Part shown: positions 7,694 to 40,078 of the stretch, piece after piece
How the letters are laid out: the number at the start of each line of letters is the position of its first letter
How positions within the stretch are numbered: the stretch's first letter is position 1
Sequence record: OQ870555.1
Source: Escherichia phage PECP14
Length of the DNA stretch: 64,000 bases
Reading direction: 5' to 3' (one strand)
Notes under the pieces: generated by a model
Database searches by the model: none
Seen by the model: the letters and a program-made list of their open reading frames with translations, nothing else
What the model was told of the DNA's origin: nothing
Program-made: the position numbers and the translations under genes

Positions 7694-7927
7694 TTATGAT
7701 TCTTTGAGCAAAGAAGCAAGTTCAGCATAGACTTTATCTAACTCAAAGCCAATGCGAAGAGACACACGAGTCTTCCGTTGTTTAAGTAACCATATGGAGA
7801 CATTAGGGATGCCAGCGAGACGAGGTGGTACAACCCTACATAGTTTCTCCGCAGTATCGTAAACAGAAGTTTTACGTTCTTTTATGGGAAACTTCCTTGT
7901 TTCCCACTTTTTATTCTTCACTGTCAT
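7694..7927 (-). CDS. hypothetical protein
   Basis: ORF 7694-7978 trimmed to the internal Met to limit overlap with the upstream helicase gene; start uncertain. Confidence 0.35.
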   Translation of the reverse strand: MTVKNKKWETRKFPIKERKTSVYDTAEKLCRVVPPRLAGIPNVSIWLLKQRKTRVSLRIGFELDKVYAELASLLKES

Positions 7928-10700
7928 TTCTAGCTCCCAATTCAGCAAGAGCTTCCTCATGCATCTGACGTTCTTCATCTGTCATAAACTTAACTGGAAT
8001 CGGCATACATTCGATCTTACAGTAAGTTCTGTACCAGTCCACAATCTTTTCCGTATCCAGATCTTTACCGATACCCATCATGCCAAGATACATACGAGCA
8101 TATTTTGGGTTAGCGCTCTGACCTGTCTTAAGGAAGAAATCCTTCTTCTTATTCTTAAGAGCTTCGATAAACGGTTTGATTGTTACGTTTGAACACTTTT
8201 TAATATCTTCCCAGAACATCTCGTGCATCTTATGGAAAAATGCAGCTCGATCATTCGGTTTATCCTTGATATACTGTTCAACGTGTTCCACTGTTACATC
8301 TTTAATAGAATCCAGATGATAATAGCGAACCAGAAGTAACTTGGCTTCATAGGCATCTGCATGACGTGGTGCGCAATATTCAGGAGTTGAGTGCAGAATA
8401 GCTTTGATTCGCTCTTCTGTATACTCTTTGCCTGCACCTTCGATAGTCCCCCAGCTTTCACTGAAGATATCAATAGTTGCACCTTGATCGAGAAGATAAT
8501 AACGCAAAGTACTGGTATAGTTTCTAGATTCCAGCTCACGACGGCGTGCGTACAGTTGCTGAGCTAACTCAATCCAACCCTCGTCAATATTATATTGCTC
8601 GGAACCCGCAGAGAATCCACTCGTAGATTTATCAATAAAATAATAAATGTTCTGAGCACCACGGTCGCGCCTGATTGCTTGAAAACGCATGTTTGGCGCT
8701 TGGTTTGAGGTTCTAGTGATTACGAATACGTTATCAAAATAGTTAAAGTCAACACCACTCGTTACAGATGGACTACATAATAAACAATCAATCTGTTGAT
8801 CAATTAGCTCATTAGTTGTATAATCCAGAATACGTCGGATATCTACATCAGACGTAGAGTTTGAGTGAATTTCTTTAACTAACGCACCAGTATTACGACG
8901 TAATGCCATTCCCTTCTCATTCAGTTCATCCGGGCCACAGTCAGATACTAGGATTGATTTCTCCCCCATCTCTAAAGATGTTTGAAGTGCAACCCAAATA
9001 CTGGATTCATCAGGGAATTCATAAGCATGAGCTTTCGCCAGCATTTTACGGTGGTGATTATAAAATGCGACTGGTTTATCAAAATCAATCAAAGAACCAT
9101 AGGCTTCAATCGTTTCTGCACTGATATCACCATCGGATAAGATAACAGTTTTAGCAGTAATAAGGATATCACGAAGAACCTGAATACATTCACGACGGTT
9201 TTTAACAACCGGAGCGAATAACAGATCATTCATTACTGCGTCACATTCATCAATAAAGATCGTATCAATCTGACCCACAAAGCTCTTGAACTTATGGATA
9301 GAGTGAATAGTTGAAGACATACGATCAATGGCACCACGTTTGAAGTTCAGCATATCAACTGACTTATCATACTGACCAGCACCGAATTTCTTCGCGTTAG
9401 AAGATACAAGTGCCCTAGTATTTGTGATTGCAATAAAGTTTCCTGGAAGAACACCTGCATCTAGCCACTTAGTTACTGCTGTAGTTTTACCCGTACCAAG
9501 ACTTGCCTTAACAAATGTTAAATGTCCTTTTGGGGGTACAATGTTAATTTTCAGGTACGGAACTTCTGGTGGAGAATCTGTGTCTAGACGTTTTAATGGT
9601 ACACCTTTTAAGTTTGGTGGAATCTCACGTTTGGAGTTATTTACAAAGGCTTTGAGAGCCTGCTTACGACCGTTATTAAAGTAATCTTGAATATTACGAC
9701 TATTATCTTTAGTCGCAATATACTCAGATAAAGCTGGTTTAATCTCACGTTCTAACCACGTAAAGTCAACACCATCTTCTAACGCTCTGTGATAAAGTTT
9801 TGGGATAATACGCAGGTACACTCCATCCTCAGCTTCTTCTAGTTCGCTGATGGTTTCTTCCACTTTATCAGATGCAGCCTTCTTGCCTTTAATTTGATCA
9901 AGTAAGGAGTAGAACTCTTCTTTAAACTCACCTCTAGTTGTTTCAAAGTCAACTAGGTTATTAGGTAGATTCACCTTCGAACCCTTAACATATACAAGAC
10001 GTGGTTTATTCTCCGCTTTAAACGGATCGACTATACCATCATCAAATAAGGGATCTGCAAAATAGTGAAGCTGAACAGAAGAATAATAAGCTAAGTCAGC
10101 AATATCAAAGCCATACTTTTGCTTACTACTGTCATTGATAGATGTAAATAAGAACTTTAACTGTCCCTGCGTTACCTTGACATTAGATTCTAGCATTAAG
10201 TGCATTCGGATACCTGGTTTTAATCCAGCCGAAGACGATGCATGGGCAATAAACCCTGCATCAAGAGGAAACATATCCTCACTAATACTATTCAACATCT
10301 TAATAATATGACGTGCCATGCCAACAAGATTAAACTTGTCATAGCCACCAGTATCTACAATACCATCCACGTCCATAGCAATAATATGACTAGGATTGGA
10401 TACGTTAAAGTTTCCCCTGGTACGACGCACATTATCTTTTGGAGCTAAACATTTACCACGAATAGCTACAATATGCGGGTCTTTGGTAAGACGACGCATG
10501 ATAGGTAACATTTCAGCAAGGTTTTGCGGGTCAAGTTCTTCAAGTACATCAAATTTGAAGGGCATGGAAGCTGGTTTACCTTCTGGATGCTCTTTAGAGA
10601 ATCGCTTTGCAAAGGTGTAATCTTCCACTTTGATCTCTTTCCAGATGCCAGTGGCTTTATCTCTGGAAAATCCTGCGTGACCTTGTAGGATTGAGAACAC
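7911..10700 (-). CDS. SF2 helicase / replication-origin-binding-type protein
   Basis: Walker A VKASLGTGKTT, Walker B FIDECD; ORF is open to 10823 but GTG at 10698-10700 has an AGGAG 7 nt upstream. Confidence 0.55.
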   Translation of the reverse strand: MFSILQGHAGFSRDKATGIWKEIKVEDYTFAKRFSKEHPEGKPASMPFKFDVLEELDPQNLAEMLPIMRRLTKDPHIVAIRGKCLAPKDNVRRTRGNFNVSNPSHIIAMDVDGIVDTGGYDKFNLVGMARHIIKMLNSISEDMFPLDAGFIAHASSSAGLKPGIRMHLMLESNVKVTQGQLKFLFTSINDSSKQKYGFDIADLAYYSSVQLHYFADPLFDDGIVDPFKAENKPRLVYVKGSKVNLPNNLVDFETTRGEFKEEFYSLLDQIKGKKAASDKVEETISELEEAEDGVYLRIIPKLYHRALEDGVDFTWLEREIKPALSEYIATKDNSRNIQDYFNNGRKQALKAFVNNSKREIPPNLKGVPLKRLDTDSPPEVPYLKINIVPPKGHLTFVKASLGTGKTTAVTKWLDAGVLPGNFIAITNTRALVSSNAKKFGAGQYDKSVDMLNFKRGAIDRMSSTIHSIHKFKSFVGQIDTIFIDECDAVMNDLLFAPVVKNRRECIQVLRDILITAKTVILSDGDISAETIEAYGSLIDFDKPVAFYNHHRKMLAKAHAYEFPDESSIWVALQTSLEMGEKSILVSDCGPDELNEKGMALRRNTGALVKEIHSNSTSDVDIRRILDYTTNELIDQQIDCLLCSPSVTSGVDFNYFDNVFVITRTSNQAPNMRFQAIRRDRGAQNIYYFIDKSTSGFSAGSEQYNIDEGWIELAQQLYARRRELESRNYTSTLRYYLLDQGATIDIFSESWGTIEGAGKEYTEERIKAILHSTPEYCAPRHADAYEAKLLLVRYYHLDSIKDVTVEHVEQYIKDKPNDRAAFFHKMHEMFWEDIKKCSNVTIKPFIEALKNKKKDFFLKTGQSANPKYARMYLGMMGIGKDLDTEKIVDWYRTYCKIECMPIPVKFMTDEERQMHEEALAELGARNDSEE

Positions 10701-11196
10701 AACAATACTCCTATGTTGGTTATTCGGATATCTTTCTTTAGGACTATTCAAAAGAATAGAACAACTATTACTACCATTTACACAAACATTAATCATCATC
10801 AAGCAGTATGAATAAGTTATCATACCTCAGTGCTGCGCTCTCTTAACTCTTATCCAGATCAGAACCTAGGTCATTGGCCGCTAAGCCGATTCTGATTGCC
10901 CTCACTATCCTATTGGTAGGTGGCTACTGGACGTGTCACCATTCGCTGCTCTTTTCGTTCGCACCCCCATATAAAGCTCTGCCTATATAACGAGCTAAAT
11001 ATGCACGGTTTGGATTTACCTTTCCGAATTCAGGGTACGCAGATCACTTAATTGATAATTAACTAATGCAGTATAAACACTAGTAATAGTTAAAACAACC
11101 CTTAATGGGGCAGCCTAACTGTTCCGTATTGCGGATTGTAAACAAGAAAAATTAGCAAAATCAATTTTTACTAATGTCTCTCAATTCAATATAAAT

Positions 11197-11225
11197 ATTA
11201 TATCAAGATTTTGAGCATCCTGCAA
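11197..11225 (-). promoter_or_regulatory. leftward early promoter followed by long leader
   Basis: minus strand TTGCAG-17-TATAAT; ~500 nt ORF-free before the helicase ORF. Confidence 0.45.
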
Positions 11226-11316
11226 GTAAAATTTTTCCGAAGGTGCTATCAGTGTCTTTGAGCACAGAGAAAACCGAGTCAAAACGACTCGGTAATCAGG
11301 ATTGAGCTAATGAAAA

Positions 11317-11712
11317 TCAATCATCATTTAGGCCTGGGACATAGATTCCAATGCGATTTAATCGACCTTTAGCTTCTTCGAGAATATCTTCGGTGTACTC
11401 CCAAATATCATCTTCTACTTGCAAAAGATAAGGGGATTCACCAGTTTCGGGGTCACGTGTAATGGCTAAACCACGTGGATGGAATATAGAGAAGTTGAGG
11501 GCAACAATCAAGCCCATGCTGGACAATTCATTCCAGTCAGCTTCCCAACCATCATCTTCATCTTCGTCCACAAAGACACCTACACTAGGGTCTGTTACAG
11601 AAGTAAACGGAAATGTTACACTAACCTTGTCAACCCCCAACCAACGTGCAAGGAGCCCCTCAGCACGCTCTACCAAACTAGGATCTATCTGACGCCAAAA
11701 TACTTGTTCCAT
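11317..11712 (-). CDS. hypothetical protein (paralog 1 of tandem pair)
   Basis: shares DW.EL..MGL..ALN...F.P and C-terminal G(I/Y)x(V/I)PGL with the adjacent ORF. Confidence 0.5.
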   Translation of the reverse strand: MEQVFWRQIDPSLVERAEGLLARWLGVDKVSVTFPFTSVTDPSVGVFVDEDEDDGWEADWNELSSMGLIVALNFSIFHPRGLAITRDPETGESPYLLQVEDDIWEYTEDILEEAKGRLNRIGIYVPGLNDD

Positions 11713-17923: not shown

Positions 17924-20254
17924 ATGAGCCATCGCATCGAAAAAGTAATTAAACGTGACGGTACTGTTCAGGACTTTGCTCCTGAAAAACTCAATGATTG
18001 GGCCGCATGGGCATGTAAAGATACTGACGTAAGTTGGTCTGCCGTAGTTATGGCTGCCCTGAAAAATCTACCCAAAGGTGTTGTAGACTCCGATACACTC
18101 CAAGATGTGTTAATTAAAGCCGCTGAAGGTCTTATCAAAGACAATCCAGCATATGATACTGTAGCAAAGGAATTACGTCTTGCGCAGATGCGTAAACGCC
18201 TATATGATTCCTTCGAACCACCTTCTCTGCGTTTCTTCCACGATCATATGGTTCGTGTTGGCGCTTGGGAAGACATGAGTGCATGGATTAGCGATGATCA
18301 GTTTGACGCTCTGAATCAAGTTATTGACCATGATCGCGATCGTTTATTCACCAGTGGTGGACTGAAACAGTTCTTCGACAAGTATTCCCGTCGTAATATT
18401 GCAACTGGTGAAATTTATGAAACCCCGCAGTTTGCCTACATGGGTATGGCAATGGCGATGTTATCTCAACCTAACTGGACAATTCTAGATGCAATCGACC
18501 TCTACAATGCAATGTCGCTCCACAAAATCAACGTTCCTACGCCGCCACTGGTTGGCCTGCGCTCTAGTGACCGTGGATTTGCTAGTTGCTGCCTCGTGGA
18601 TTCCACTGACACTCTGGATTCAATCGACACAGCCGAGCACATCGTCTTCAAAATGGTCGCAGCCAGAGCGGGAATCGGGTATCATCTTGAAAGCCGATCA
18701 ATTGCTGATCCGGTGCGAAATGGGGCATTCCCGCATTCCGGAAAACTGCCATATTATCGACACATTGACCGTTCAGTAAAAGCTAACACTCAGCAAACCC
18801 GTGGCGGTTCTGCTACTGTGTCTTATCCATACTTCGATCCTGAAATCATTCAGTTGATGCAGGTTAAACAGCAACGTGCTACAGACGAGAATAAAATCGA
18901 TAAAATGGATTACTCTCTGAGCTTTAACAACCTTCTGTTAAAACGTTACCTGAAAAACGAAGATATTACGCTAATGTCCTACTTCTACGCACCAGAAGTT
19001 CATGAAGCGTTTTATGGCGAAGATGAGGCTAAGTTTGAAGAAATCTACATGGCAGCGGAGAAACGTGTGGCATCTCTTACAAAGATCGACCACGAAGGGA
19101 AAACAATTCCAGCAGCTCCTAGAATCTCTGCAAAAGAAATCCTAGATACTTGGTTACGCATCCGTATGGAAACAGGGCGTATGTACGCTCATCATATTGG
19201 TGAATCTAACCGTCATGGTAACTTCCTTGACCCGATTCGTATGACCAACCTTTGTGTAGAGATTACTCAGCCTACTCGTCCATTCCAGCACATTACGGAA
19301 CTGTACAAAACTGCGGATCAATTAGATGATATGCGTCCAGAAGATATTGGTGAAGTATCTCTGTGTAACTTAGGTGGTGTTGTACTTGGACGCATGGAAT
19401 CTCTGGCTGAGTGGGAAAAAACTTGCTACATCCTACTGAAATTCGTTGATACAATTATTGAAATTCAGGATTATCCGTTCCCAACTATGGAATATACAGC
19501 TAAGAAACGTCGTAATGTTGGTATTGGCCTGATGAACGCAGCAGGTGCAATGGCAGCAGAAGGTCTGGCTTATGAAGGTATTGAAGCCCGTAACTGGATT
19601 CACCGTGAGGCTGAAAAACTGTCTTACTTCCTGCATAAAGCCTCTGTACGCCTAGCTAAAGAACAGGGTGCATGTGAGTGGTTTGATCGTACTAAACCAT
19701 CTAAAGGAATTCTGGTAATCGACACGTACAAGAAAACTGTTGATGAACTGGTATCCGTAGGTCTAGAAATGGATTGGGAGTCTCTGCGTGCAGATATTCT
19801 GAAATATGGTATGCGTAATTCTGTTCTGACTGCTCAGATGCCAGGAGAAAGTTCTTCTGTTCTGCTAGGAGTTACTAACTCTATCGAACCGCCTCGTAAG
19901 ATTGTATCTATCAAGGGTAGTGCAGTGAATAAAGTAATTGCAATTGCTCCAGGTGCAACCGATTGGGAAACGTTAATGAGCTATAAACTGGCTTATGATG
20001 TAGATCGTATCGAGTGGATCAAATGGGTAGCAACTATGCAGAAATTCTTCAGTCAGTCTATCAGTACGAATATGTACTATGACTACACCAAGTTTGATAA
20101 TGAAATCATTCCTGGCCCAGTAGTAGTTCGTGATTTCATGACTGCTGTTAAGTATGGGTGGAAAACTTTCTACTATGCAAACTTCAATACCGCAAATGGT
20201 GGAGGTGCTGGAGAAGAAGCAGCCGGTTGTGCATCCGGCGGTTGTACTATTTAA
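17924..20254 (+). CDS. nrdA: ribonucleotide reductase large subunit (class Ia)
   Basis: ATP-cone N-terminus (VIKRDGTVQDF), catalytic-site Cys motifs, C-terminal CxxC tail; start at Met with AAGGA SD. Confidence 0.85.
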   Translation: MSHRIEKVIKRDGTVQDFAPEKLNDWAAWACKDTDVSWSAVVMAALKNLPKGVVDSDTLQDVLIKAAEGLIKDNPAYDTVAKELRLAQMRKRLYDSFEPPSLRFFHDHMVRVGAWEDMSAWISDDQFDALNQVIDHDRDRLFTSGGLKQFFDKYSRRNIATGEIYETPQFAYMGMAMAMLSQPNWTILDAIDLYNAMSLHKINVPTPPLVGLRSSDRGFASCCLVDSTDTLDSIDTAEHIVFKMVAARAGIGYHLESRSIADPVRNGAFPHSGKLPYYRHIDRSVKANTQQTRGGSATVSYPYFDPEIIQLMQVKQQRATDENKIDKMDYSLSFNNLLLKRYLKNEDITLMSYFYAPEVHEAFYGEDEAKFEEIYMAAEKRVASLTKIDHEGKTIPAAPRISAKEILDTWLRIRMETGRMYAHHIGESNRHGNFLDPIRMTNLCVEITQPTRPFQHITELYKTADQLDDMRPEDIGEVSLCNLGGVVLGRMESLAEWEKTCYILLKFVDTIIEIQDYPFPTMEYTAKKRRNVGIGLMNAAGAMAAEGLAYEGIEARNWIHREAEKLSYFLHKASVRLAKEQGACEWFDRTKPSKGILVIDTYKKTVDELVSVGLEMDWESLRADILKYGMRNSVLTAQMPGESSSVLLGVTNSIEPPRKIVSIKGSAVNKVIAIAPGATDWETLMSYKLAYDVDRIEWIKWVATMQKFFSQSISTNMYYDYTKFDNEIIPGPVVVRDFMTAVKYGWKTFYYANFNTANGGGAGEEAAGCASGGCTI

Positions 20255-30381: not shown

Positions 30382-30456
30382 CGGGGTGTAGTCTAAGGGA
30401 TAGGCAGGAGTCTTCTAAATTCCTTTATGCAGGTTCGAATCCTGTCACCTCGGCCA
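30382..30456 (+). tRNA. tRNA-Arg(TCT)
   Basis: hand-folded cloverleaf; AC loop CTTCTAA; T-arm GCAGG-TTCGAAT-CCTGT; CCA encoded. Confidence 0.6.
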
Positions 30457-30694
30457 ATTTTATTAACTGCTAGGAAAATAAAGTGAAAACACGATATATA
30501 GTAAAAGTAGTAGGTGAACATTCACAAGTAAATACCACCGATGTTACAGCGCTAGCATTTGAAGTAGTCTCCGGTATAGTCATATTTCATAACGGAGATA
30601 TCAAAGCTCCTGAATTTGCTGTGGATGCTAGCCTGTTTATTTCTGCAACTAAAGTAACTGTAGTAGCTAACTCTTCTAAATAATAAGGAAATAT

Positions 30695-31639
30695 ATGTTT
30701 ACTAAAAACACTAAAGAACTGACTTCCGATCAAAAAGTAATTCGTACTATTAAACGTTGGGGTGTTGGTGCTGTAGTTGGTCTTGGCGCTCTTATTCTGG
30801 CTCTCAATTCCTATACAGTTGTTCAGGACGGTACGGTTAAAACTCAGACTTTCCTGGGTAAAGTTAGTCCTAATCCTGTATTGCCGGGGTTCCATATTGT
30901 CAACCCATTCGCCTCTTTTGATACTTTTAGTACGAAAGATATTTCTATGAAACTGGATAAACTTCAGGTTCCTAGCCAGGATAAGTTTAAGTCTACAGTT
31001 GACATTACCGTTATGTTGCAGTTTGATGGTGCTAAAGCTCCTATGAACCGTGTTAACGCAGGTACTCAGGATCAAGCTCTGAACAAGTACGTTGAAGAGA
31101 AGATGCTGTCTACGATTCGTGAGTTTGGTAAGTCTGTACCAAAAGCACAAGATCTGTTCGACGCTAAGATTCAGGCTCAACTGCAAACCGCTATTCAGCA
31201 AGAAGTAGAAGAGTATGCGCGTCCTTATGGTTACACCGTTAAGCAAGTATTCCTTCAGGATATTACTCTGCCACCGGTAATCATGGAACAGGTACAGAAC
31301 ACCAAAGTTCGTGAAGAACAAGTTAACGCTGCAAAAGCTGAACTGGCTCGTGTTGAACAAGAAGCACAGCAGAAAGTTAAGCAAGCTGAGGCAGATCGTT
31401 CCGCTCGTGAAAACATGGCAGTAGCTAACGAACGTGACGCAGATGCTAAACTGTACGCAGCTAAGAAAGAAGCTGAAGCTAACGCCGCTCTGCAACGTAC
31501 CATTACTCCTGAAATGATTCGTTGGAAGCAGCTGGAAGTTGAAATGCTTCGTGCTGAAAAATACCAAGGGGGTGTACCACAGACTGTTGTCGGTACTGGC
31601 TACGATGGTCAAATGATCATGGATATGCGTAACAAGTAA
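30695..31639 (+). CDS. SPFH/band-7 (prohibitin/HflK-like) membrane protein
   Basis: N-terminal TM helix, SPFH core, long Ala/Glu/Gln coiled-coil tail; two terminators downstream. Confidence 0.65.
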   Translation: MFTKNTKELTSDQKVIRTIKRWGVGAVVGLGALILALNSYTVVQDGTVKTQTFLGKVSPNPVLPGFHIVNPFASFDTFSTKDISMKLDKLQVPSQDKFKSTVDITVMLQFDGAKAPMNRVNAGTQDQALNKYVEEKMLSTIREFGKSVPKAQDLFDAKIQAQLQTAIQQEVEEYARPYGYTVKQVFLQDITLPPVIMEQVQNTKVREEQVNAAKAELARVEQEAQQKVKQAEADRSARENMAVANERDADAKLYAAKKEAEANAALQRTITPEMIRWKQLEVEMLRAEKYQGGVPQTVVGTGYDGQMIMDMRNK

Positions 31640-31662
31640 TAGTTACACGTAATCTTCGAACC

Positions 31663-31698
31663 AAGCCCGCGTTTCCTTCGAGAGCGCGGGCTTTTCTG
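31663..31698 (+). terminator. intrinsic terminator after SPFH gene
   Basis: AGCCCGCG...CGCGGGCT stem + TTTTCTG. Confidence 0.6.
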
Positions 31699-31714
31699 TA
31701 TTTAAGGCAAAAGA

Positions 31715-31754
31715 AAAAGCCCCTTACCTTTCGGCAGGGGCTTTTGTTTTTTGG
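31715..31754 (+). terminator. second, possibly bidirectional terminator
   Basis: AAAAAGCCCCT...AGGGGCTTTTGTTTTTT at the convergence point of plus and minus genes. Confidence 0.6.
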
Positions 31755-31959
31755 TTTAGAACCATACTCTCTTGTTACAACAACCACTCATACGGGAGAC
31801 CAATCTTGACTGAAAATCTACTCTAGGGGGCAGGATAAGAGTAGGCTTAAAGGCAAACGGATTGAACACCGGTATTTGTGTAAACATTGCTGGAGAGCAA
31901 CAACGTGCTACAGGTATTGGGCAGCACGAAACAGATTTTCTGCAACACATAATTCCTCC

Positions 31960-32376
31960 TTAGGAGTTATTACCGCCATTTTGAGCTTTTGCAACTTGGC
32001 TTTGGCAGAAGCTATTAAACTTACCCATAAGTGCTACAAGCTGTTTCCCATCCTCTGTCTTTGCGAAGTCTTCGAAAAGGGCTAGTACTGCCTGTCCTTC
32101 CGCAGAAACCTGCGGTTGTTGGGTTTGTTGCTGAACTTGCTGCTGAGGCACCTGTTGCTGCATTTGTTGAGGCATTTGCGACTGCCCGCTCATTTGCTGC
32201 ATCATTTGCATAGGACTCACACTTCCAGGGTTTTGCTGGAGTTGCTGCTGCATCTGTTGCGCTTCTGCTAAACGCTGTTGCAACTGTTGTAGGTAAGGGT
32301 TATCCAGACCCGGAATGGGCTGCTGAGAGCCCATTGGTTGATTAAATCCGTTGTTCACAAAACCATATTTACTCAT
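31960..32376 (-). CDS. glutamine-rich low-complexity protein
   Basis: over 30% Gln with poly-Q(M/P) tracts; convergent with neighbouring plus-strand genes. Confidence 0.45.
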   Translation of the reverse strand: MSKYGFVNNGFNQPMGSQQPIPGLDNPYLQQLQQRLAEAQQMQQQLQQNPGSVSPMQMMQQMSGQSQMPQQMQQQVPQQQVQQQTQQPQVSAEGQAVLALFEDFAKTEDGKQLVALMGKFNSFCQSQVAKAQNGGNNS

Positions 32377-32398
32377 AATGGGCTCCTCCCCTTAAAGA

Positions 32399-33400
32399 TT
32401 AGGCTGGTACTTTAGCCTGTAGAGCTGCTAGAGTCTGAGTAATTGCACCCAGGCTTACAGCGATTTGATTGATTACCTGACCGTTTGCACCGCTACCTGC
32501 AGCGATTGCTTCACGCAGACGGCATTCATTCAGTTCGTCTTGGATACGCGCAGTAGTTACACCAGCAATCGCAGTCTGAAGTTCGCAGCAGCACTCAGCA
32601 AGCTGACGTTCGATAGCGTTCTGGTTAGCACACATCTGAGCCTGAACAGCGGCAAACTGGTTGTTAGTCTGAAGAGACTGCTGGAAAGCAATCTGGGCAG
32701 AGTCAAACTTGTCTTGTGCACGAGCGATCTGGTTAGCAGCGAAAGCTTGATCCATCTGGCGAGAAAGATCGAACTGACCCTGAATAACGTTACGAGTTTC
32801 CTGACAGATCTGGTTGGACAGGTTAGCACCAGTACCATACACAGTAGTCAGAATCTGTTGAGTGCTAGAAGCTTGAGCAGCACCTACACCATTAACAGCG
32901 CTCAGAACAGCACCAGTACCTTGATTCGCTTCGGTACGAGCAGTGTTGATTGCAGCTAGAATACTTGCAGTATCCTGGTTAGATAGGATAGCATCCACAG
33001 CAGTTCCCTCAGCGGCAACACCAGCACCACGTCCGAAACCACCGAAACCACCGAATCCGCCTGTTAATAGAGCACCAATCAGGATAGCTCCGAATAGACC
33101 CATACCTTCACCGCCGAAAGCACCATTTGCTACTGCTGGGTAACCACCCATCAGACCTGGGAAGCCGCTAGTGAATACGTTTACTGGTTCTTGCATTTTA
33201 TGTTTCCTATGTTTATGACAGCCCTCATGGTCGTCATCTTCATCATCTTCATCGTCATCATCGTGATCACGATGTTTCTTTTCGTAGGCCTTGACCTTCT
33301 CCCACTTATGTTTGTCTGATTCCTCATGACGTCTCAGTTCTGCTGCGACTTCACTGACGGTCTCAGGTTTCTTAGTTGCTTCTTCTGTCATTTTTGACAC
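32399..33400 (-). CDS. hypothetical protein: acidic/His-rich N-term, Gly-zipper segment, Ala/Gln-rich domain
   Basis: DDDDEDDEDDDHEGCHKHRKHK then GGFGGFGGFGRG; TTGACA-type promoter and AGGAGGTG SD upstream. Confidence 0.5.
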   Translation of the reverse strand: MSKMTEEATKKPETVSEVAAELRRHEESDKHKWEKVKAYEKKHRDHDDDDEDDEDDDHEGCHKHRKHKMQEPVNVFTSGFPGLMGGYPAVANGAFGGEGMGLFGAILIGALLTGGFGGFGGFGRGAGVAAEGTAVDAILSNQDTASILAAINTARTEANQGTGAVLSAVNGVGAAQASSTQQILTTVYGTGANLSNQICQETRNVIQGQFDLSRQMDQAFAANQIARAQDKFDSAQIAFQQSLQTNNQFAAVQAQMCANQNAIERQLAECCCELQTAIAGVTTARIQDELNECRLREAIAAGSGANGQVINQIAVSLGAITQTLAALQAKVPA

Positions 33401-33459
33401 CTCCTAGTATATAGAAAATGTGTGTCTCTTTGATCACTCATCTATAACATATACTTTAC

Positions 33460-33500
33460 ACTACCCCAGCGAAAATGTCAAGGGGTCTTTAAAAATTGCC
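33460..33500 (-). promoter_or_regulatory. leftward sigma70-like promoter for the convergent module
   Basis: minus strand CCTTGACATTTT...TAAAGT, then TAGGAGGTG SD before 33400 ATG; coordinates approximate. Confidence 0.4.
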
Positions 33501-33597
33501 CCCGGATTTTTAGTGGGATAACAATTTCTGGACCTCACCACTCACCTGCTACCCTTAAGTGCCCTGCGATTTTCCACTAAAAAGTTTAAAAATTCGA

Positions 33598-33626
33598 TTG
33601 CTTGAATGCTAAATTCTCTGTATAAT
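33598..33626 (+). promoter_or_regulatory. early promoter cassette
   Basis: TTGCTT-17-TATAAT + TTATAAATTTGAGAGAGGAA. Confidence 0.55.
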
Positions 33627-33656
33627 ATATTTATAAATTTGAGAGAGGAATCAAAT

Positions 33657-34712
33657 ATGATTAAGACTGGTCTAGTAATTGGTAAGTTCGCACCATTAAC
33701 GCGTGGTCATATTAACCTAATAAACACAGCAGCAACTATGTGTGAACGAGTTATTGTTGTAGTTAGTCATGATAATCGTTGGCTGGATAAGCAGAACACA
33801 CGTGATCAGGAAGTATTACAGTTAAAGAATCGACTTCGTTGGTTAGAACAAACTTACGCGGATATTGAGCACGTTTCGGTAGAGTACATTATTGAAGATG
33901 ATATTCCTGAATATCCGAATGGTTGGCCGGAATATGCTAGAATCCTTAATGAAAATTATGGACATTTGCCTGAGATCACCATTTTCTCTAGCGAACTAGA
34001 CTATGATGCAGAATATAAGAAATATCTGCCGAAGTTTGGTCATTATATTGTAGATTCTGATCGGACTCGTGTTCCAATCTCAGCTACAATGATTCGTAAT
34101 GATCTTATGAAGTATTGGGAGTTTCTTCCTAGCGTAGTTCGTAAAGATTACGTGCGTAAGGTTGTAATCATTGGGACTGAAAGCTCAGGCAAAACAACTT
34201 TAACAAAGTACCTTGCGAAATTATATAATACTTCGTGGGTAGAAGAATATGGTCGTACTTACTGCGAAGTTGATCTAGTTGGTAATGAAGAACTCCTGAC
34301 TAGCGAGGACTATAATAAAATTGCATTCAGGCACAAAGAGCTAGAGTTTGAGGCAGAACGTACTGCAAATAAGATCATGTTTGTAGACACAAATGCTTTC
34401 ATTACAGAGTTTTATCACAGACTTTACGAGCATCGTAAAAATCCGGTTGTAACAGCTATTGCTAAAGAAGAGCATTATGATTTAGTTATAGTTTTAGCAC
34501 CTACTGTTAAGTGGGTAGATGATGGTTTACGTATTAACTCCGATCGTTCAATTACTTCTGAACTGTTCGAGCAGATGAAGAAAGAATTTCCTAATCAGTT
34601 TCCAGAAGGGCGTACTGTATATATTGACTCCCCGGACTATAAGGTTCGTATGGACGAAGCAGTAAACGCAGTAGACTGGCTGATTCATCACTTTAACGTT
34701 GGAGAGTTTTAA
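33657..34712 (+). CDS. NadR-like NMN adenylyltransferase / ribosylnicotinamide kinase
   Basis: GKFAPLTRGH (HxGH nucleotidyltransferase) and GTESSGKTTL (Walker A kinase). Confidence 0.65.
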   Translation: MIKTGLVIGKFAPLTRGHINLINTAATMCERVIVVVSHDNRWLDKQNTRDQEVLQLKNRLRWLEQTYADIEHVSVEYIIEDDIPEYPNGWPEYARILNENYGHLPEITIFSSELDYDAEYKKYLPKFGHYIVDSDRTRVPISATMIRNDLMKYWEFLPSVVRKDYVRKVVIIGTESSGKTTLTKYLAKLYNTSWVEEYGRTYCEVDLVGNEELLTSEDYNKIAFRHKELEFEAERTANKIMFVDTNAFITEFYHRLYEHRKNPVVTAIAKEEHYDLVIVLAPTVKWVDDGLRINSDRSITSELFEQMKKEFPNQFPEGRTVYIDSPDYKVRMDEAVNAVDWLIHHFNVGEF

Positions 34713-34713
34713 T

Positions 34714-35391
34714 ATGACTAACTATCTTGTAAATGACTTTAAAAACTGGAAACCTTTGGAATATCTGTGGCTGTTTATAGCAGTCGCCTTTATTAGTTTA
34801 GCTAACTATAATGGTACAGCTCTAGATTGGGCTACTGCAATAACCAACGTGGTTTGTGTTATTCTGGTTGCAAAAGGACGTGTTTCCAACTATATTTGGG
34901 GCTTAGTTGGTGTTCTTACCTATGGTATTACAGCTTTAAACGCAGATCTTTATGGTAACGCTGCACTAAACCTGCTATACTACGTTCCTATGCAGTTTTA
35001 TGGAATGTACTTATGGCATAAAAATAAGCCAAGTAATCTGCCAGATGTTCCAACTAAGGTTCTGACTAAAGCCCAAGCTCTGCTGACTCTAGGGATTCTA
35101 GCAGTAGCCACGTTAGGGTATGGTAGTTTCTTAGCTACTACGGCTGATCCATTCCCAATGTTGGATGCATTTACTGCGGTAGGTAGTGTGATCGCTATGT
35201 GGCTTATGGTTAAGCAGTATGCCGAGCAGTGGCTGATCTGGATTGCTATTAACATTGGTACTGTATATATTTGGCTTGTAACTGCCCAGTCTACGGGTGC
35301 TTCTTATGCAATCCTAGCAATGTGGCTGGTGTTCTTAGGTAACTCTATTATGGGAGCCTATAAAGGCTACTTTGTAAGAGTTAACAAATAA
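34714..35391 (+). CDS. pnuC: PnuC-like nicotinamide riboside transporter
   Basis: polytopic membrane protein with PnuC-like W/Y-rich helices; directly follows NadR-like gene. Confidence 0.6.
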   Translation: MTNYLVNDFKNWKPLEYLWLFIAVAFISLANYNGTALDWATAITNVVCVILVAKGRVSNYIWGLVGVLTYGITALNADLYGNAALNLLYYVPMQFYGMYLWHKNKPSNLPDVPTKVLTKAQALLTLGILAVATLGYGSFLATTADPFPMLDAFTAVGSVIAMWLMVKQYAEQWLIWIAINIGTVYIWLVTAQSTGASYAILAMWLVFLGNSIMGAYKGYFVRVNK

Positions 35392-35396
35392 AGTAG

Positions 35397-35425
35397 TTAT
35401 AGCCCTCTAAGCGAGGGCTATTATA
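35397..35425 (+). terminator. hairpin terminator after pnuC
   Basis: ATAGCCCTC-TAAGC-GAGGGCTAT. Confidence 0.5.
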
Positions 35426-35438
35426 CAGAAATTTTCAC

Positions 35439-35467
35439 TTGCTTTATATAGAAAATTTCTGTATAAT
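35439..35467 (+). promoter_or_regulatory. early promoter cassette
   Basis: TTGCTT-17-TATAAT; near-identical leader to the 33598 copy. Confidence 0.55.
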
Positions 35468-35497
35468 ATATTTATAAATTTGAGAGAGGAATCAAAC

Positions 35498-35794
35498 ATG
35501 AAACACATTGTACTTGCATTGACTCTAGTATCTACTTCTGTATTTGCTGCTCCACAACAGGAACTTTGTCAAGTTCAAGTTTGTAATAAGCTAGAACGAT
35601 TTACTCTAGACATTTGGTCGCACATTAAAGATAATATGGGTGAACAGTGTTTTGATATTGTTCTGCCAAAAGAACAAGCTGTTCCTGGGGCTGTTCTCAG
35701 CTCAGAATCACGTTGGTGGCAGGGTTCTTCTATCAACCCAACTAAGAAGTCAGTGACACGTATCAAACAAGTATATCAGTGCAATGTTCAGTAA
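35498..35794 (+). CDS. small secreted Cys-containing protein
   Basis: signal peptide MKHIVLALTLVSTSVFAAP. Confidence 0.45.
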   Translation: MKHIVLALTLVSTSVFAAPQQELCQVQVCNKLERFTLDIWSHIKDNMGEQCFDIVLPKEQAVPGAVLSSESRWWQGSSINPTKKSVTRIKQVYQCNVQ

Positions 35795-35802
35795 AATTTC
35801 AC

Positions 35803-35831
35803 TTGCTTAATGCCGAAATTTTCTGTATAAT
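35803..35831 (+). promoter_or_regulatory. early promoter cassette preceding tRNA-Ser
   Basis: TTGCTT-17-TATAAT. Confidence 0.55.
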
Positions 35832-35845
35832 ATATTCATAAATTC

Positions 35846-35939
35846 GGAAGATTAACCCTAAAGGTAAGGGAGCTGTTTGCTAAACAGCCAGTAGCTGTGG
35901 AGACACGGTGTGCCAGTTCGAATCTGGCATCTTCCTCCA
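35846..35939 (+). tRNA. tRNA-Ser(GCT)
   Basis: acceptor GGAAGAT/ATCTTCC; AC loop TTGCTAA; long variable arm; follows promoter. Confidence 0.7.
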
Positions 35940-35944
35940 AATTT

Positions 35945-36022
35945 GGTTCTCAAGCTCATTTGGTATGAGCCGTCGCCTCATAAGCGAAAGGTAGGTAGGT
36001 TCGAATCCTCCGGGAGCCACCA
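35945..36022 (+). tRNA. tRNA-Met/Ile2(CAT)
   Basis: D-stem GCTC/GAGC; AC loop CTCATAA; T-loop TTCGAAT; CCA encoded. Confidence 0.55.
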
Positions 36023-36039
36023 ATTAACTAGGAGACTAT

Positions 36040-36225
36040 ATGTCTAGATTCTATGAAATGAAGAAAGCATTAGAAGAATGTCGGTGTAAGGATTGTCATG
36101 GTGGTGGTAGGCAGGATGATGCAGAACCTGGGGATATTTTCTGTAGAGAATGGGAATGTCCTACATGTAAAGGTACTGGTATCAACCCTGAATATGCAAT
36201 TTGTCTAGACATTGAGCGAGGCTAA
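36040..36225 (+). CDS. small Cys-rich (zinc-ribbon-like) protein
   Basis: CRCKDC...CREWECPTC. Confidence 0.4.
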   Translation: MSRFYEMKKALEECRCKDCHGGGRQDDAEPGDIFCREWECPTCKGTGINPEYAICLDIERG

Positions 36226-36565
36226 GATGGATATTTTTACTACTCCGGCAATAAACCTTTTAGGTGTTGGCTTGTTCCAAGCTACGGTGTATCGTACTGA
36301 TGATTCTACTGATGTGGTAACGTTCATCGTACCTGAGTTCTTCCTAGAAAAGTTCTTTGAAGAGTTTGAGCAGTTCCGTGAAGAACACAATGCTCATTCC
36401 GATATGGAAGATCTAGCAGCTATGTTCCCTGTGGTTTACGGCTATATCTTTGAAGGTAATGGCCTAGATCTTAATAAATCTGAACTCGTTGAACTTAATT
36501 GGGGCATCAATTTTGAAGTTGGCTCTCCATTCCCTCGATATTTCCAGGGTTTAGAGATTCGCTAA
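36212..36565 (+). CDS. hypothetical protein
   Basis: ORF. Confidence 0.45.
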   Translation: MSEAKMDIFTTPAINLLGVGLFQATVYRTDDSTDVVTFIVPEFFLEKFFEEFEQFREEHNAHSDMEDLAAMFPVVYGYIFEGNGLDLNKSELVELNWGINFEVGSPFPRYFQGLEIR

Positions 36566-36573
36566 GATTACAT

Positions 36574-36650
36574 GGGGGTGTAATCGAATTGGCATAGGTA
36601 CTGGACTTAAAATTCAGGTTTTGTGGGTTCGAATCCCACCACCCCTACCA
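36574..36650 (+). tRNA. tRNA, anticodon TAA (isotype uncertain)
   Basis: acceptor GGGGGTG/CACCCCT; T-arm GTGGG-TTCGAAT-CCCAC; AC loop CTTAAAA with short variable loop. Confidence 0.5.
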
Positions 36651-36665
36651 AATTAAGGAAATAAA

Positions 36666-36788
36666 ATGAAAGCTATTAAGAAAGCACTACGTAAATTTAT
36701 GTACTGTCGTTTTCATAGCATCAAGACTTCAACTAATGGTACGACTTATGATCGCTATGATCCTAAGTTTGGCTTACATTCTAAATAA
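36666..36788 (+). CDS. small hypothetical protein
   Basis: 40-codon ORF with AAGGAAA SD after a tRNA. Confidence 0.3.
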   Translation: MKAIKKALRKFMYCRFHSIKTSTNGTTYDRYDPKFGLHSK

Positions 36789-36801
36789 CTGGAGATAATA
36801 A

Positions 36802-37008
36802 ATGGCTAATCCTGAAATTACTGCACAGCGCTTTATGCTGAAAGGTATTATTGCTGAAGCAGGCATGACAGAAGAAGTTGCAGATTTTCAAAAGCAGTTC
36901 CTAAATATTCTCACTCAAGCCAAAGAGCTAGGAGAGAAAGAACATGGCGCGGCTATTATGGCAATCACATTGGTTGGGCTTGATCTGGCAGAAGAATCAG
37001 GAGTTTAA
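36802..37008 (+). CDS. hypothetical protein
   Basis: ORF. Confidence 0.4.
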   Translation: MANPEITAQRFMLKGIIAEAGMTEEVADFQKQFLNILTQAKELGEKEHGAAIMAITLVGLDLAEESGV

Positions 37009-37038
37009 CTCCTCCAAGCAGAAATTTTAAAAATGTAC

Positions 37039-37068
37039 TTGCTTTTTACTTAAGATTTCTGCTATAAT
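37039..37068 (+). promoter_or_regulatory. early promoter cassette
   Basis: TTGCTT-18-TATAAT. Confidence 0.5.
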
Positions 37069-37098
37069 AGTTATATAAATTGATGAAGGAGTTAACGA

Positions 37099-37374
37099 AT
37101 GTCAAAACGTGTTACTGCAACTGGTGTTGAAAGTGCTGTTTGTAAATCCTGGGGTGGCTGGGAAGGTGAGATTGAATGGCTTTATTTCTACGATGTAGAA
37201 CTTCTGCCGGAAGTCAAAGCTAAATGTGTGGAAGCTGGTATGGCTCCTGATGCAAAGGCTGATATCGAAATCACCATGACTAAGCTAGAAGGTCGTGTAA
37301 TTACGCTCAATGATGATTATGAAGAAGTGTTCGAGCTTCCATTCAAACTGAGTGTCACCCCTAGCTTCGAGTAA
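37099..37374 (+). CDS. hypothetical protein
   Basis: promoter cassette + AAGGAG SD. Confidence 0.45.
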   Translation: MSKRVTATGVESAVCKSWGGWEGEIEWLYFYDVELLPEVKAKCVEAGMAPDAKADIEITMTKLEGRVITLNDDYEEVFELPFKLSVTPSFE

Positions 37375-37410
37375 CTGATATAGCACTGAGCAAGTTCTTT
37401 AAAATTTGAC

Positions 37411-37439
37411 TTGCTCAGTCCTTCAAAACTTGATATAAT
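37411..37439 (+). promoter_or_regulatory. early promoter preceding tRNA cluster
   Basis: TTGACTTGCTC / TATAAT. Confidence 0.5.
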
Positions 37440-37503
37440 AGTTATCTAATTTGGAAAACATATTTAAAAGTGTTTAAACTAGTATTTGAATATTTCTAAA
37501 TAT

Positions 37504-37594
37504 GTTGGATTAGTATCGTAGAGGTAGCGAAGCAGACTGTAAATCTGCCGACTCGGAAGGGTCTCGGGTGGTTCGACTCCATCATCCAACACCA
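37504..37594 (+). tRNA. tRNA-Tyr(GTA)
   Basis: AC arm GCAGA-CTGTAAA-TCTGC; long variable arm. Confidence 0.6.
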
Positions 37595-37601
37595 AATTTA
37601 A

Positions 37602-37678
37602 GTCCTGTTAGACAAACTGGTAAAGTCACTACCCTTTCAAGGTAGGATTTGCGGGTTCGATCCCCGCACAGGACGCCA
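37602..37678 (+). tRNA. tRNA-Glu(TTC)
   Basis: acceptor GTCCTGT/ACAGGAC; AC loop CTTTCAA; T-arm GCGGG-TTCGATC-CCCGC. Confidence 0.7.
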
Positions 37679-37687
37679 AATTCTGCA

Positions 37688-37763
37688 TTCCTAGAGTGTT
37701 ACTGGACAGCATGTCGGTCTCCAAAACCGTACGGTCTAGGTTCGAGTCCTAGTAGGTTTGCCA
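37688..37763 (+). tRNA. tRNA-like, anticodon CCA (Trp?), non-canonical acceptor
   Basis: AC arm TCGGT-CTCCAAA-ACCGT and T-arm CTAGG-TTCGAGT-CCTAG are good but acceptor stem does not pair. Confidence 0.35.
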
Positions 37764-37769
37764 ATATTT

Positions 37770-37844
37770 GCACCTTTAGCTGAGATGGATTAGCGCTTGC
37801 CTGAAGAGCTTGAGAGGTTGGATCGTTACCAACGGGGTGCACCA
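37770..37844 (+). tRNA. tRNA-Phe(GAA)
   Basis: acceptor GCACCTT/GGGGTGC; AC loop CTGAAGA; T-arm GTTGG-ATCGTTA-CCAAC (atypical loop). Confidence 0.5.
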
Positions 37845-37846
37845 AT

Positions 37847-38134
37847 TTGAAGGAGATGCTGATGCATCCTGAAAACTTCTTTATTTACTGTGCGGATAAG
37901 TCACTGAAACGCAGAATTAACAAAGTCTATCATTATCGTGCTAGTCAACAGCCTTATGTTTATGCTTTTGATGGAGAAACCATTCCACTAGAGCAGTTGG
38001 CTTGTGATTACATGGTATTGAAGAACTTTGATGAGACAAAGATCTCAAGCGTTCATAATCGACAGAACCCATTAACGTGGAAGTATAAGAAGAAAAAGAA
38101 AGGCATCATATTTCTGAAAAATGTAGTTGCTTAA
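37847..38134 (+). CDS. hypothetical protein
   Basis: ORF after tRNA cluster. Confidence 0.4.
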   Translation: MKEMLMHPENFFIYCADKSLKRRINKVYHYRASQQPYVYAFDGETIPLEQLACDYMVLKNFDETKISSVHNRQNPLTWKYKKKKKGIIFLKNVVA

Positions 38135-38155
38135 CCGCTTAAAGTTCTGTATAAT
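38127..38155 (+). promoter_or_regulatory. early promoter cassette
   Basis: TTGCTT-17-TATAAT. Confidence 0.5.
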
Positions 38156-38184
38156 TATTACATAAATTGAACTGGAGAAGCAAC

Positions 38185-38409
38185 ATGACAGAACAAGAAT
38201 TGAAAGAACGTAAGCTGGTAATGCTTCGCTTACTAAACATTTTCTCTGGTATGGATGGTGGTATTGACTTCGTTAATCTACGTTGCTTTGTAGAAGAAGC
38301 AGAAGGTGAGGCTATCACTAGGATTCTTAAACATATGGGTTTGTTATTAGATGTTGCTAATGTGGCTACTCAATATAAGCTCGAAGATTTACCGGAGCGT
38401 GTTAAATGA
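38185..38409 (+). CDS. hypothetical protein
   Basis: promoter cassette + GGAGA SD. Confidence 0.4.
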   Translation: MTEQELKERKLVMLRLLNIFSGMDGGIDFVNLRCFVEEAEGEAITRILKHMGLLLDVANVATQYKLEDLPERVK

Positions 38410-38597
38410 AAATGTTAGTTAAATTTAAGTGTTGTGGTTCTGAACATATTTTCACTCGTTATAGAGAGTTTAAGATGTGTGAGTGTGGTAAGTCAGGCTA
38501 TGATGCTGGAGATGGCTATTATGCTAGATCTATAGGACATTATAAAGATCTAGAGTTTACTAATCTCGAAAAGCAAGATAAATCGACCGTTGGCTGA
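38406..38597 (+). CDS. small Cys-containing protein
   Basis: ORF overlapping previous stop. Confidence 0.4.
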   Translation: MKMLVKFKCCGSEHIFTRYREFKMCECGKSGYDAGDGYYARSIGHYKDLEFTNLEKQDKSTVG

Positions 38598-38659
38598 ATG
38601 GCTTAGGCGGAGGCCTGCAAAACCTCCTTATGTGAGTTCGAATCTCATGCGGTCGTCCA
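38584..38659 (+). tRNA. tRNA-Cys(GCA)
   Basis: acceptor CGACCGT/GCGGTCG; AC loop CTGCAAA; T-loop TTCGAAT. Confidence 0.6.
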
Positions 38660-38666
38660 AATTTTA

Positions 38667-38749
38667 GGGTCGTTAGCCAAGCGGTTTGGCGGTGGACTGT
38701 TAATCCATGTCGAAAGACAACGTAGGTTCGAATCCTACACGGCCCGCCA
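38667..38749 (+). tRNA. tRNA-Asn(GTT), extended variable region
   Basis: acceptor GGGTCGT/ACGGCCC; AC arm GTGGA-CTGTTAA-TCCAT; T-arm GTAGG-TTCGAAT-CCTAC. Confidence 0.55.
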
Positions 38750-38852
38750 TATTCTGTGTAGAGTTAAGTAAACCGGTAGCCAACCAGCTATCATTACTGA
38801 TATCGAATTCAGTCACAGATACCATTTTTCATTAACAACTGAGGAAATAGAT

Positions 38853-39038
38853 ATGACAACTCGTGCAATTGCTCGACTAGAAGCTGATCGTGATAATCTG
38901 ATTAATAATATTAAGGTTCGTGGTAATATTATTAAGGCTCTGAAAGCTGAACTTCTTGAAGAACTTCAAGGTCAAGTAGAGCGTCGTGAAGCTCTAAAAG
39001 AGGTTGAGGAAGCTATCGAAAAACTCAAAACTGAGTAA
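38853..39038 (+). CDS. small coiled-coil protein
   Basis: ORF with GAGGAAA SD. Confidence 0.4.
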   Translation: MTTRAIARLEADRDNLINNIKVRGNIIKALKAELLEELQGQVERREALKEVEEAIEKLKTE

Positions 39039-39047
39039 ATAAATTAT

Positions 39048-39124
39048 GCGATCGGGGCTGGCTTGGTAATGGTACTCCCCTGTCACGGGAGAGAATGTGG
39101 GTTCGAATCCCATCGGTCGCGCCA
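39048..39124 (+). tRNA. tRNA-Asp(GTC)
   Basis: AC arm CTCCC-CTGTCAC-GGGAG; T-arm GTGGG-TTCGAAT-CCCAT. Confidence 0.7.
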
Positions 39125-39138
39125 ATTTAGGCTATAGT

Positions 39139-39330
39139 ATGACACGCAAATATTTAGTTATTAAAGGTGAACATGCAGGACAAACTGTATACTCATTGAA
39201 ATTTCATGATTATGGTTTAGCCTCAGATGATACTCGATATACTGGAATAGAGCATACAAGTGTAACATTAGACGAAACAGGTGATTATCCTAGTTTTACT
39301 ATTCCTAAAGATTTCTTAAAAGAGATTTAA
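39139..39330 (+). CDS. hypothetical protein
   Basis: start moved downstream of tRNA-Asp. Confidence 0.4.
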   Translation: MTRKYLVIKGEHAGQTVYSLKFHDYGLASDDTRYTGIEHTSVTLDETGDYPSFTIPKDFLKEI

Positions 39331-39331
39331 T

Positions 39332-39408
39332 GCTTCCATAGCTCAACTGGTTAGAGCTACCGCCTCTTAAGCGGAGGGTTGAAGGTTCAAGTCCTTCTGG
39401 GAGTACCA
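39332..39408 (+). tRNA. tRNA-Lys(CTT)
   Basis: D-stem GCTC/GAGC; AC loop CTCTTAA; T-arm GAAGG-TTCAAGT-CCTTC. Confidence 0.6.
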
Positions 39409-39611
39409 AACAAATAGAGTAAAGGCTACAGTAGGTGCACCCTTACGGACTGCTACACCGGACTCTATTCATTAACAAACATTCTAGCGTGGTGGAGAGG
39501 GGACACCAGCTTGCCGAGGGTAGAAGCTCGTTCGATTCGAGTGAAAGAATGGTTCTCGTAAATCCGCACAAGTGATAGCAGGTTCAAGTCCTGCCTAGAT
39601 TGACTTATTAT
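39409..39611 (+). other. degenerate tRNA-like elements
   Basis: two T-arm-like hairpins (CTCG-TTCGATT-CGAG; GCAGG-TTCAAGT-CCTGC) with no complete cloverleaf. Confidence 0.3.
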
Positions 39612-39685
39612 GCGTTCGTAGTTAAAAGGTATAATTTTTGGTTGCCAACCAGAAGTTGAGGGTTCGATTCCCTCCGACCGCACCA
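39612..39685 (+). tRNA. tRNA-Gly(GCC)
   Basis: AC arm TTTGG-TTGCCAA-CCAGA; T-arm GAGGG-TTCGATT-CCCTC. Confidence 0.6.
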
Positions 39686-39962: not shown

Positions 39963-39994
39963 ATATTTTATAAAGTGAGTTAACAAAGAATATT

Positions 39995-40072: not shown

Positions 40073-40078
40073 AACAAT

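Follow-up and report, generated by a model that had tools for sequence, protein, structure and literature searches.

Large cis-acting leaders such as the cobalamin and lysine riboswitches, the T-boxes and the ribosomal-protein leaders lie 5′ of one gene, on its strand and in synteny with it, and form an autonomous multi-helix domain closed by a stem, with strong covariation and only a few invariant nucleotides in loops or unpaired stretches. The element described here, which heads the gene for the D2-type SF2 helicase in T5-like phages, is alike in all these respects. It was analysed in a stretch of 64 000 nucleotides (nt) of Escherichia phage PECP14 (sequence record OQ870555.1); this whole stretch is called the window, and coordinates given without another name refer to it. 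The gap upstream of the helicase gene encodes, on the sense (minus) strand at 11138–10744, a self-contained and highly structured RNA domain of ~395 nt. Unlike the large cis-acting leaders it has no match in Rfam, neither a terminator nor a platform that sequesters the Shine–Dalgarno (SD) sequence was found, and its closing stem of 37 base pairs (bp) is far longer than the P1 stem of riboswitches.

Four other kinds of system invite comparison. The GOLLD, ROOL and OLE RNAs (PMC12286853) are likewise several hundred nt long, phage-borne and rich in covarying helices, and share with the T5-like element a biochemical role that is unknown; the T5-like element differs in lying in an mRNA leader by a replication gene, not beside tRNA genes, and in being smaller, with a core of ~245 nt. 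It matches no Rfam model of the GOLLD/ROOL type, and the tRNA cluster of the window, at 30–45 kilobases (kb), is not adjacent. The ColE1 RNA II pre-primer and the T4 R-loop origins oriF and oriG share with the T5-like element a replication context and a promoter heading a long transcript that is structured and untranslated. The T5-like element differs from these in showing no evidence of a hybrid-forming or RNase H site or of an antisense regulator, and the conservation of its structure spans much deeper divergence than is found among ColE1-type plasmids. The RNase III stalks of rRNA operons, T7 early mRNA and the lambda N leader are long imperfect duplexes that flank a folded RNA or sit in an early leader; the T5-like stem, unlike them, encloses a conserved non-ribosomal core, and cleavage there is only putative. 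Finally, the T4 gene 32 pseudoknot, the gene 43 hairpin and the csRNAs upstream of gp32 (PMC10690425) also place structured RNA directly before a replication gene, but the T4-type operators measure tens of nt and overlap the ribosome-binding site, whereas the T5-like element measures ~395 nt and ends before the SD sequence is reached.

The first-pass annotation of the window had drawn attention to this gap and proposed that the structure and conservation of the leader be analysed; the analysis reveals a conserved structured RNA. The leader folds with −144.5 kcal/mol, against −118.3 ± 5.8 kcal/mol for dinucleotide shuffles (z = −4.5; none of 100 shuffles is as good), and the predicted fold is dominated by a long-range stem. 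Helix positions were converted from leader indices to window coordinates and the boundaries of the parts were re-extracted. The parts, in the order in which they are transcribed, are:

11144–11182 (−): H1, the 5′ hairpin directly past the predicted transcription start, from the minimum free energy fold
11096–11138 (−): P2 domain, with the motif UAC-R-GAAC-R-GU-NN-GGC-Y-G and a 3-bp hairpin, CAG-UUAGG-CUG (11121–11111)
11049–11091 (−): 5′ arm of the closing stem P3, forming a 37-bp duplex with 10763–10802 (−36.5 kcal/mol)
10805–11048 (−): multi-helix core of ~245 nt, helices P4a to P9
11048–11045 with 10832–10829 (−): P4a
11042–11037 with 10838–10833 (−): P4b
11036–11033 with 10966–10963 (−): P5
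10962–10961 with 10949–10948 (−): P6
10931–10927 with 10857–10853 (−): P7
10858–10896 (−): P8 hairpin, with outer helix AUCAGAAUC / GGUUCUGAU and inner GGC-UUAGCG-GCC separated by an asymmetric internal loop
10826–10821 with 10810–10805 (−): P9
10763–10802 (−): 3′ arm of the closing stem P3
10744–10759 (−): P10 hairpin, CUAUUC-UUUU-GAAUAG, past the closing stem and ahead of the ribosome-binding site

The helices are supported by covariation. Ten lineages were compared, the relatives including T5, clade B (chee24/DT57C-like), phiR201, Erwinia KEY, Klebsiella Sugarland-type phages, Pectobacterium My1 and the metagenomic contig L079. Their cores are often unalignable by sequence and MAFFT alone misaligned them, so the helices were aligned by hand and checked with a covariance model from a single clade. 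In the hand alignment (55 pairs, 34 distinct sequences) 97.9% of the pairings are canonical, and in 48 of the 55 pairs both sides vary. The alignment scores 0.571 for covariation, compared with 0.173 in column shuffles (maximum 0.196), and sliding the 3′ partner by 1–3 columns leaves only 31–47% canonical. As this alignment had been fitted to the structure, two less biased checks were run. When genomes are aligned by sequence alone, the window and T5 differ by three compensatory changes and no disruptive one; L079 and KEY by seven compensatory, two G·U-mediated and three disruptive changes; and L019 and L018 by four, one and one respectively. The other check was a covariance model, R1, trained on clade B alone, which places the 3′ domain where it is expected in KEY (43 bits), L079 (35.7 bits), My1 (16.5 bits, E = 0.006), T5 (13.2 bits) and Klebsiella phages (13.0 bits). 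The Infernal alignment of these matches has 92.3% of its cells paired, as opposed to 65.7% in shuffles; both partners vary in 20 of the 24 pairs, and covariation scores 0.723, with 0.218 for shuffles; none of 500 shuffles reaches any of these measures, and slid partners are 35–45% paired. The rebuilt model (R2) finds phiR201, which was outside the seed (27 bits, E = 6 × 10−4), and has a single significant site in the window, at 10807–10932 (71.8 bits, E = 1.4 × 10−13). G·U pairs outnumber A·C pairs by 157 to 7, an excess which indicates that pairing is kept on the sense strand only, and the sense fold is better than the antisense fold by 4–29 kcal/mol in eight of nine lineages.

Only the P2 motif and the C-UUAGCG-G of P8 are fixed in sequence across the lineages, each being invariant in ten out of ten. 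The exact 23-nt pattern of P2 occurs once in each of 30 T5-like viral contigs, and the P2 hairpin covaries (CAG/CUG to CGG/CCG). The hexaloop of P8 is at 10884–10879, and P8 is the sole such UUAGCG hairpin in the window; in the Infernal alignment both partners vary in all six pairs of its outer helix and in one of the three inner pairs. The outer nine pairs of the closing stem P3 covary, and its 5′ arm has 42–45 nt in the six lineages in which P3 is annotated. P10 covaries as well, being UACUAU/AUAGUA in L079 and KEY and UCUAUC/GAUAGU in Klebsiella phages; it has no U-run after it and was not called a terminator in the consensus scan. The SD sequence starts 32 nt past P10. Helix start positions agree to within ~15 nt in all ten lineages, and the 3′ domain (P7 to P9) has 127–130 nt in every one. 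H1 lies outside the universally kept element, with analogous 5′ hairpins present in Klebsiella phages, L079 and Providencia PSTCR5. In three relatives (L003, L016 and L018) the promoter and 5′ hairpin are swapped for other sequence and everything from UUUUUCUUGUUUAC (P2 domain) onward is retained. This boundary marks the 5′ edge of the indispensable part.

The helices and the overall size of the core are conserved in Markadamsvirinae (T5, EPS7, chee24/DT57C-like phages, phiR201 and Erwinia KEY), in Klebsiella Sugarland-type phages and in Pectobacterium My1. Clade B matches the window at 83–89% on both flanks of the core; between them ~11033–10795 gives no blastn match, yet is of equal length, and the same helices are made of different letters in the two cores. 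Two types of core can be distinguished. Type I (window/EPS7, T5 and phiR201; 276 phage records) has a hairpin with an AAUA tetraloop that is also found in the Klebsiella core, and type II (clade B, KEY and L079; 116 records) has a UAUGAG loop. Cores of both types sit in almost identical flanks (window 10795–11033 compared with L019 and L022), and type II cores occur with D2 proteins that are 86% (clade B) and 65% (L079) identical to that of the window. Core type is independent of D2 phylogeny and the core has therefore been exchanged horizontally. The element as a whole is always found directly upstream of D2 and on the same strand, down to 63% D2 identity, and this linkage persists where homing-endonuclease genes replace the upstream neighbours. 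Such genes, free-standing, lie just upstream of the leader promoter in bobsandoy (L203, 668–976), BB1 (L204, 524–976) and SP15 (L202, 1–368). An intron-like homing endonuclease inside the RNA was considered and rejected, since in all three phages the gene sits upstream of the promoter, outside the fold.

More distant relatives show looser likenesses. The leader of Providencia PSTCR5 measures 640 nt; it has a similar long stem closing a core of ~290 nt, and both a UUAGCG hairpin and a P2-like motif are present. Neither R1 nor R2 gave a significant detection in PSTCR5, in L031 or in Vibrio or Aeromonas phages. In L031, whose D2 is 59% identical to that of the window, homology of the leader is weakly supported (model E = 3.3); two sigma-70 promoters with 12/12 consensus matches are present (705–733 and 1435–1464): one precedes the 700-nt leader, the other lies 37 nt ahead of D2, and no terminator separates the two. 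The Vibrio and Aeromonas relatives have gaps of 700–1300 nt without a convincing gene upstream of D2, and in three Vibrio sequences (L339, L341 and L342) a leader of ~750 nt, rich in GC and in hairpins, comes after a promoter. A motif resembling AGUGAUCU occurs in the Vibrio leader, and ~230 nt further down is a stretch that might pair with it, which recalls P4; this is a candidate likeness for which homology is not established. Outside T5-like phages, scans for GAAGTG..CTTAGCGG and for a degenerate P2 pattern returned mainly chance matches, and a simple UUAGCG-hairpin descriptor is not specific (33 matches in a background set pre-selected for CTTAGCGG).

The element does not correspond to a catalogued RNA. 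The 4227 models of Rfam 15, which we take to include GOLLD, ROOL and OLE, were searched against the window at E up to 10 and against eight further lineages at E up to 1, and none matches the leader; the only hits, snoR77 and EF3314_EF3315, lie outside the leader and are far below the gathering scores. Among ~100 GenBank records sampled from the several hundred that contain the region, none has an RNA, a regulatory feature or an origin annotated over the core; most have nothing annotated there and a few have small open reading frames (ORFs). A full-text literature search found no description of the element, although an anonymous entry in the 10,006 phage csRNA survey is possible. No similarity was found to 5,426 Escherichia coli genomes, and mimicry of a host sequence was rejected on this ground. 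There is no tRNA or tmRNA in the leader region. The 28 tRNA genes of the window, typical of T5-like phages, are clustered at 30382–45022 (+), ~20 kb from the leader. That T5-like phages carry a new class of structured RNA in the leader of their replication helicase gene is strongly supported.

The window derives from an EPS7/T5-like phage (Demerecviridae, Markadamsvirinae). Positions 10600–11400, which cover the leader and the first 100 nt of the D2 gene, match many Salmonella and Escherichia phages at 99% identity and T5 58844–59645 at 89.9% nucleotide identity; the equivalent locus is at ~48.5% of the T5 genome. The T5 record has in the homologous stretch the end of T5.107, predictions of a terminator and of a promoter, 471 nt without annotation and then T5.108. 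The corresponding features of the window are:

11273–11293 (−): intrinsic terminator (ACCGAGTCGTTTTGACTCGGT, then a T-run) belonging to the upstream transcription unit, from the consensus scan; the homologous T5 site is annotated as a terminator
11197–11225 (−): early sigma-70 promoter, TTGCAG (11225–11220), a 17-nt spacer with a TG-extended −10, and TATAAT (11202–11197)
10698–10712 (−): SD sequence AGGAG (10712–10708) and GTG start codon of D2 (10700–10698)
7911–10700 (−): D2-type SF2 helicase gene, 929 amino acids, homologue of T5.108 (T5 annotation ‘putative replication origin binding protein’)

The promoter elements are read exactly where the first-pass annotation had put a minus-strand early promoter, T5 annotates a promoter at the equivalent position, and the stretch is conserved even in Klebsiella phages. 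The consensus scan omitted this promoter because its −35 box matches at only three of six positions. Judged from the −10 box, transcription would start at ~11190. The leader had also been described as GC-richer than its surroundings, which holds (GC 0.465 at 10800–10999, 0.32–0.40 in the flanks). The D2 protein matches Pfam PF02399 (E = 5 × 10−5, residues 391–533) and, in the PDB, chains of the herpes UL9 origin-binding protein (E = 0.007). T5 D2, a relative of herpesvirus UL9, has been characterized as an SF2 helicase that unwinds in a bipolar manner (PMC3632103). T5 (T5.102; L001, 104–922), Erwinia KEY (L200, 1–244) and phiR201 (L003, 88–627) have, a few genes before the D2 leader, a gene for a Sir2-like NAD-dependent deacetylase.

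Three roles had been suggested for the leader before its structure was analysed: a regulatory leader, a small RNA or an element associated with a replication origin. The conserved sense-strand RNA fits the first two and does not decide between them; features of a DNA origin were not found. We favour action in cis on the expression of D2, with a probability of about one half. Read from the sequence, the element appears to be co-transcribed with D2: a transcript from the early promoter at 11225–11197 would carry both, and the folded domain would bind a partner (protein, RNA or small molecule) through its invariant loops. Alternatively or additionally, a double-strand-specific RNase such as RNase III may cut the 37-bp P3 stem. 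Binding or cutting would set the amount of translatable D2 mRNA early in infection, and P10 would be left as the 5′ hairpin of the mature D2 message. Such a role is supported by the same-strand linkage to D2 across deep divergence, and the consensus scan finds no intrinsic terminator between the element and D2. As in riboswitches and attenuators, an aptamer-like folded domain is present in the 5′ untranslated region, multi-helix, covarying and always upstream of D2. An RNase III stalk calls for a stem of at least ~20 bp formed by distant segments, and P3 is such a stem, with covarying outer pairs.

Several observations weigh against control in cis. No expression platform was found: the leader has no intrinsic terminator in the consensus scan, and the ribosome-binding site has no conserved partner, the best duplex lying in a different place in each lineage. 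An attenuator terminator was rejected on the first of these results and sequestration of the SD sequence by long-range pairing on the second. In L031 the 12/12 promoter 37 nt before D2 would allow D2 to be expressed without the element. The core has been swapped between lineages independently of D2, which argues against tight co-evolution with the D2 protein, and at 245 nt it far exceeds the known protein-binding translational operators.

The missing expression platform, the L031 promoter and the swapping of cores independently of D2 all favour another explanation, that the RNA is a stand-alone non-coding RNA whose core is excised at the P3 stem, in the way pre-rRNAs are freed from their stalks by RNase III, and acts in trans, for instance by scaffolding or titrating a protein of host or phage and possibly against a host defence. 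The closing stem joins the 5′ and 3′ ends, as in many stable RNAs, the size of the core and two loop motifs are constant, the core is exchanged as a module, and in L031 D2 has a consensus promoter of its own between leader and gene. However, a free RNA gene in mosaic genomes would have no need of the strict same-strand linkage to D2 seen in every lineage examined; the element also lacks a terminator of its own and resembles no E. coli sequence that it might mimic. We consider this explanation possible but rather unlikely. A role in replication is more doubtful: the transcript would fold and form a persistent RNA–DNA hybrid, or become a primer, beside the gene of an initiator-like helicase. Initiator genes often contain or adjoin an origin (lambda O, N15 repA), and early electron microscopy reportedly placed the first-round origin of T5 near the middle of the genome. 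The position of the element at ~48.5% of the T5 genome would agree with a role in replication, as would its place next to the gene of a UL9/RepA-like helicase, the promoter followed by an untranslated transcript of ~490 nt, RNA II-like in size, and the very long ORF-poor gaps that persist upstream of D2 even in the Vibrio and Aeromonas relatives. Against it, neither iterons nor notable direct repeats occur, and no AT-rich unwinding element stands out beyond the promoter region. A search for an origin of the iteron or DnaA-box kind found short two-copy repeats only, and the sequence of the core is unconserved between clades. The cumulative GC-skew minimum is at 18–19 kb, not 11 kb, a measure confounded by transcription direction, and, with so many helices and loops conserved, the RNA resembles a compact tertiary fold more than a pre-primer. 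The skew minimum (~18000–19000) probably marks a switch in gene orientation. That the element represents a new class of large structured RNA which is directly involved in starting T5 replication, be it as a pre-primer, as an R-loop origin or as a cofactor or loader of D2, is improbable; if true, it would locate and explain the T5 replication origin.

Two further explanations do without a functional RNA. The long inverted repeat could in principle extrude as a cruciform, and the locus might act purely as DNA, be it as a cruciform, as a site bound by protein or as a signal for nicking or packaging. The excess of G·U over A·C pairs reflects pairing maintained on a single strand, the sense strand folds better than the antisense strand in nearly all lineages, and the primary sequence of the core is unconserved, unlike that of a protein-binding DNA site; a DNA-level element is essentially excluded. 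The same is true of a coding function, in which D2 begins at 10823 or the gap encodes a small protein. The ORF of the window does open to an ATG at 10823, as the first-pass annotation had pointed out, and a few GenBank records call small ORFs or an extended D2. That annotation had preferred the GTG at 10700 with AGGAG as the true start, and comparison across seven lineages (52–89% identity to the window) agrees: the N-terminus M-F-x-x-L-x-G-H-x-G is invariant from residue 1, and 31 of 31 tblastn matches to D2 begin at residue 1. Its doubt about the extension was well placed. In-frame stops occur upstream of the shared start in T5 (81 nt), phiR201 (48 nt), Erwinia KEY/L079 (21 nt), Klebsiella phages (42 nt) and My1 (3 nt), with no alternative start codon between stop and start, and the extension to 10823 is therefore a chance feature of the window genome. 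The ~490 nt between promoter and D2 were likewise correctly described as free of a credible ORF, there being none of at least 60 amino acids within 10824–11316. Only ORFs of 32–43 amino acids occur in the leader, none of them conserved in position, length or strand (nine lineages compared on both strands), and substitutions track base pairing, not codons.

Some published annotations nevertheless show genes here. Small ORFs antisense to the RNA core (window 10874–10990 and 10920–11051, both +; L002, 1187–1303 and 1357–1488) are entered in GEC_vB_N7 as the hypothetical proteins gp136c and gp137c, and an N-terminally extended D2 is annotated in GEC_vB_N7 and SP15. The extended D2 and the opposite-strand small ORFs look like annotation artefacts. 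In practical terms, N-terminal extensions of D2 and small ORFs called in this region can be treated as annotation errors.

T5 has long served as a model phage, and phages related to it are widely isolated for use in therapy and biocontrol. The element is a well-supported candidate member of the small set of large structured RNAs whose function is unknown. A covarying RNA of ~400 nt at the head of the helicase gene provides a handle, open to mutation, on the control of D2 and on the start of T5 replication.
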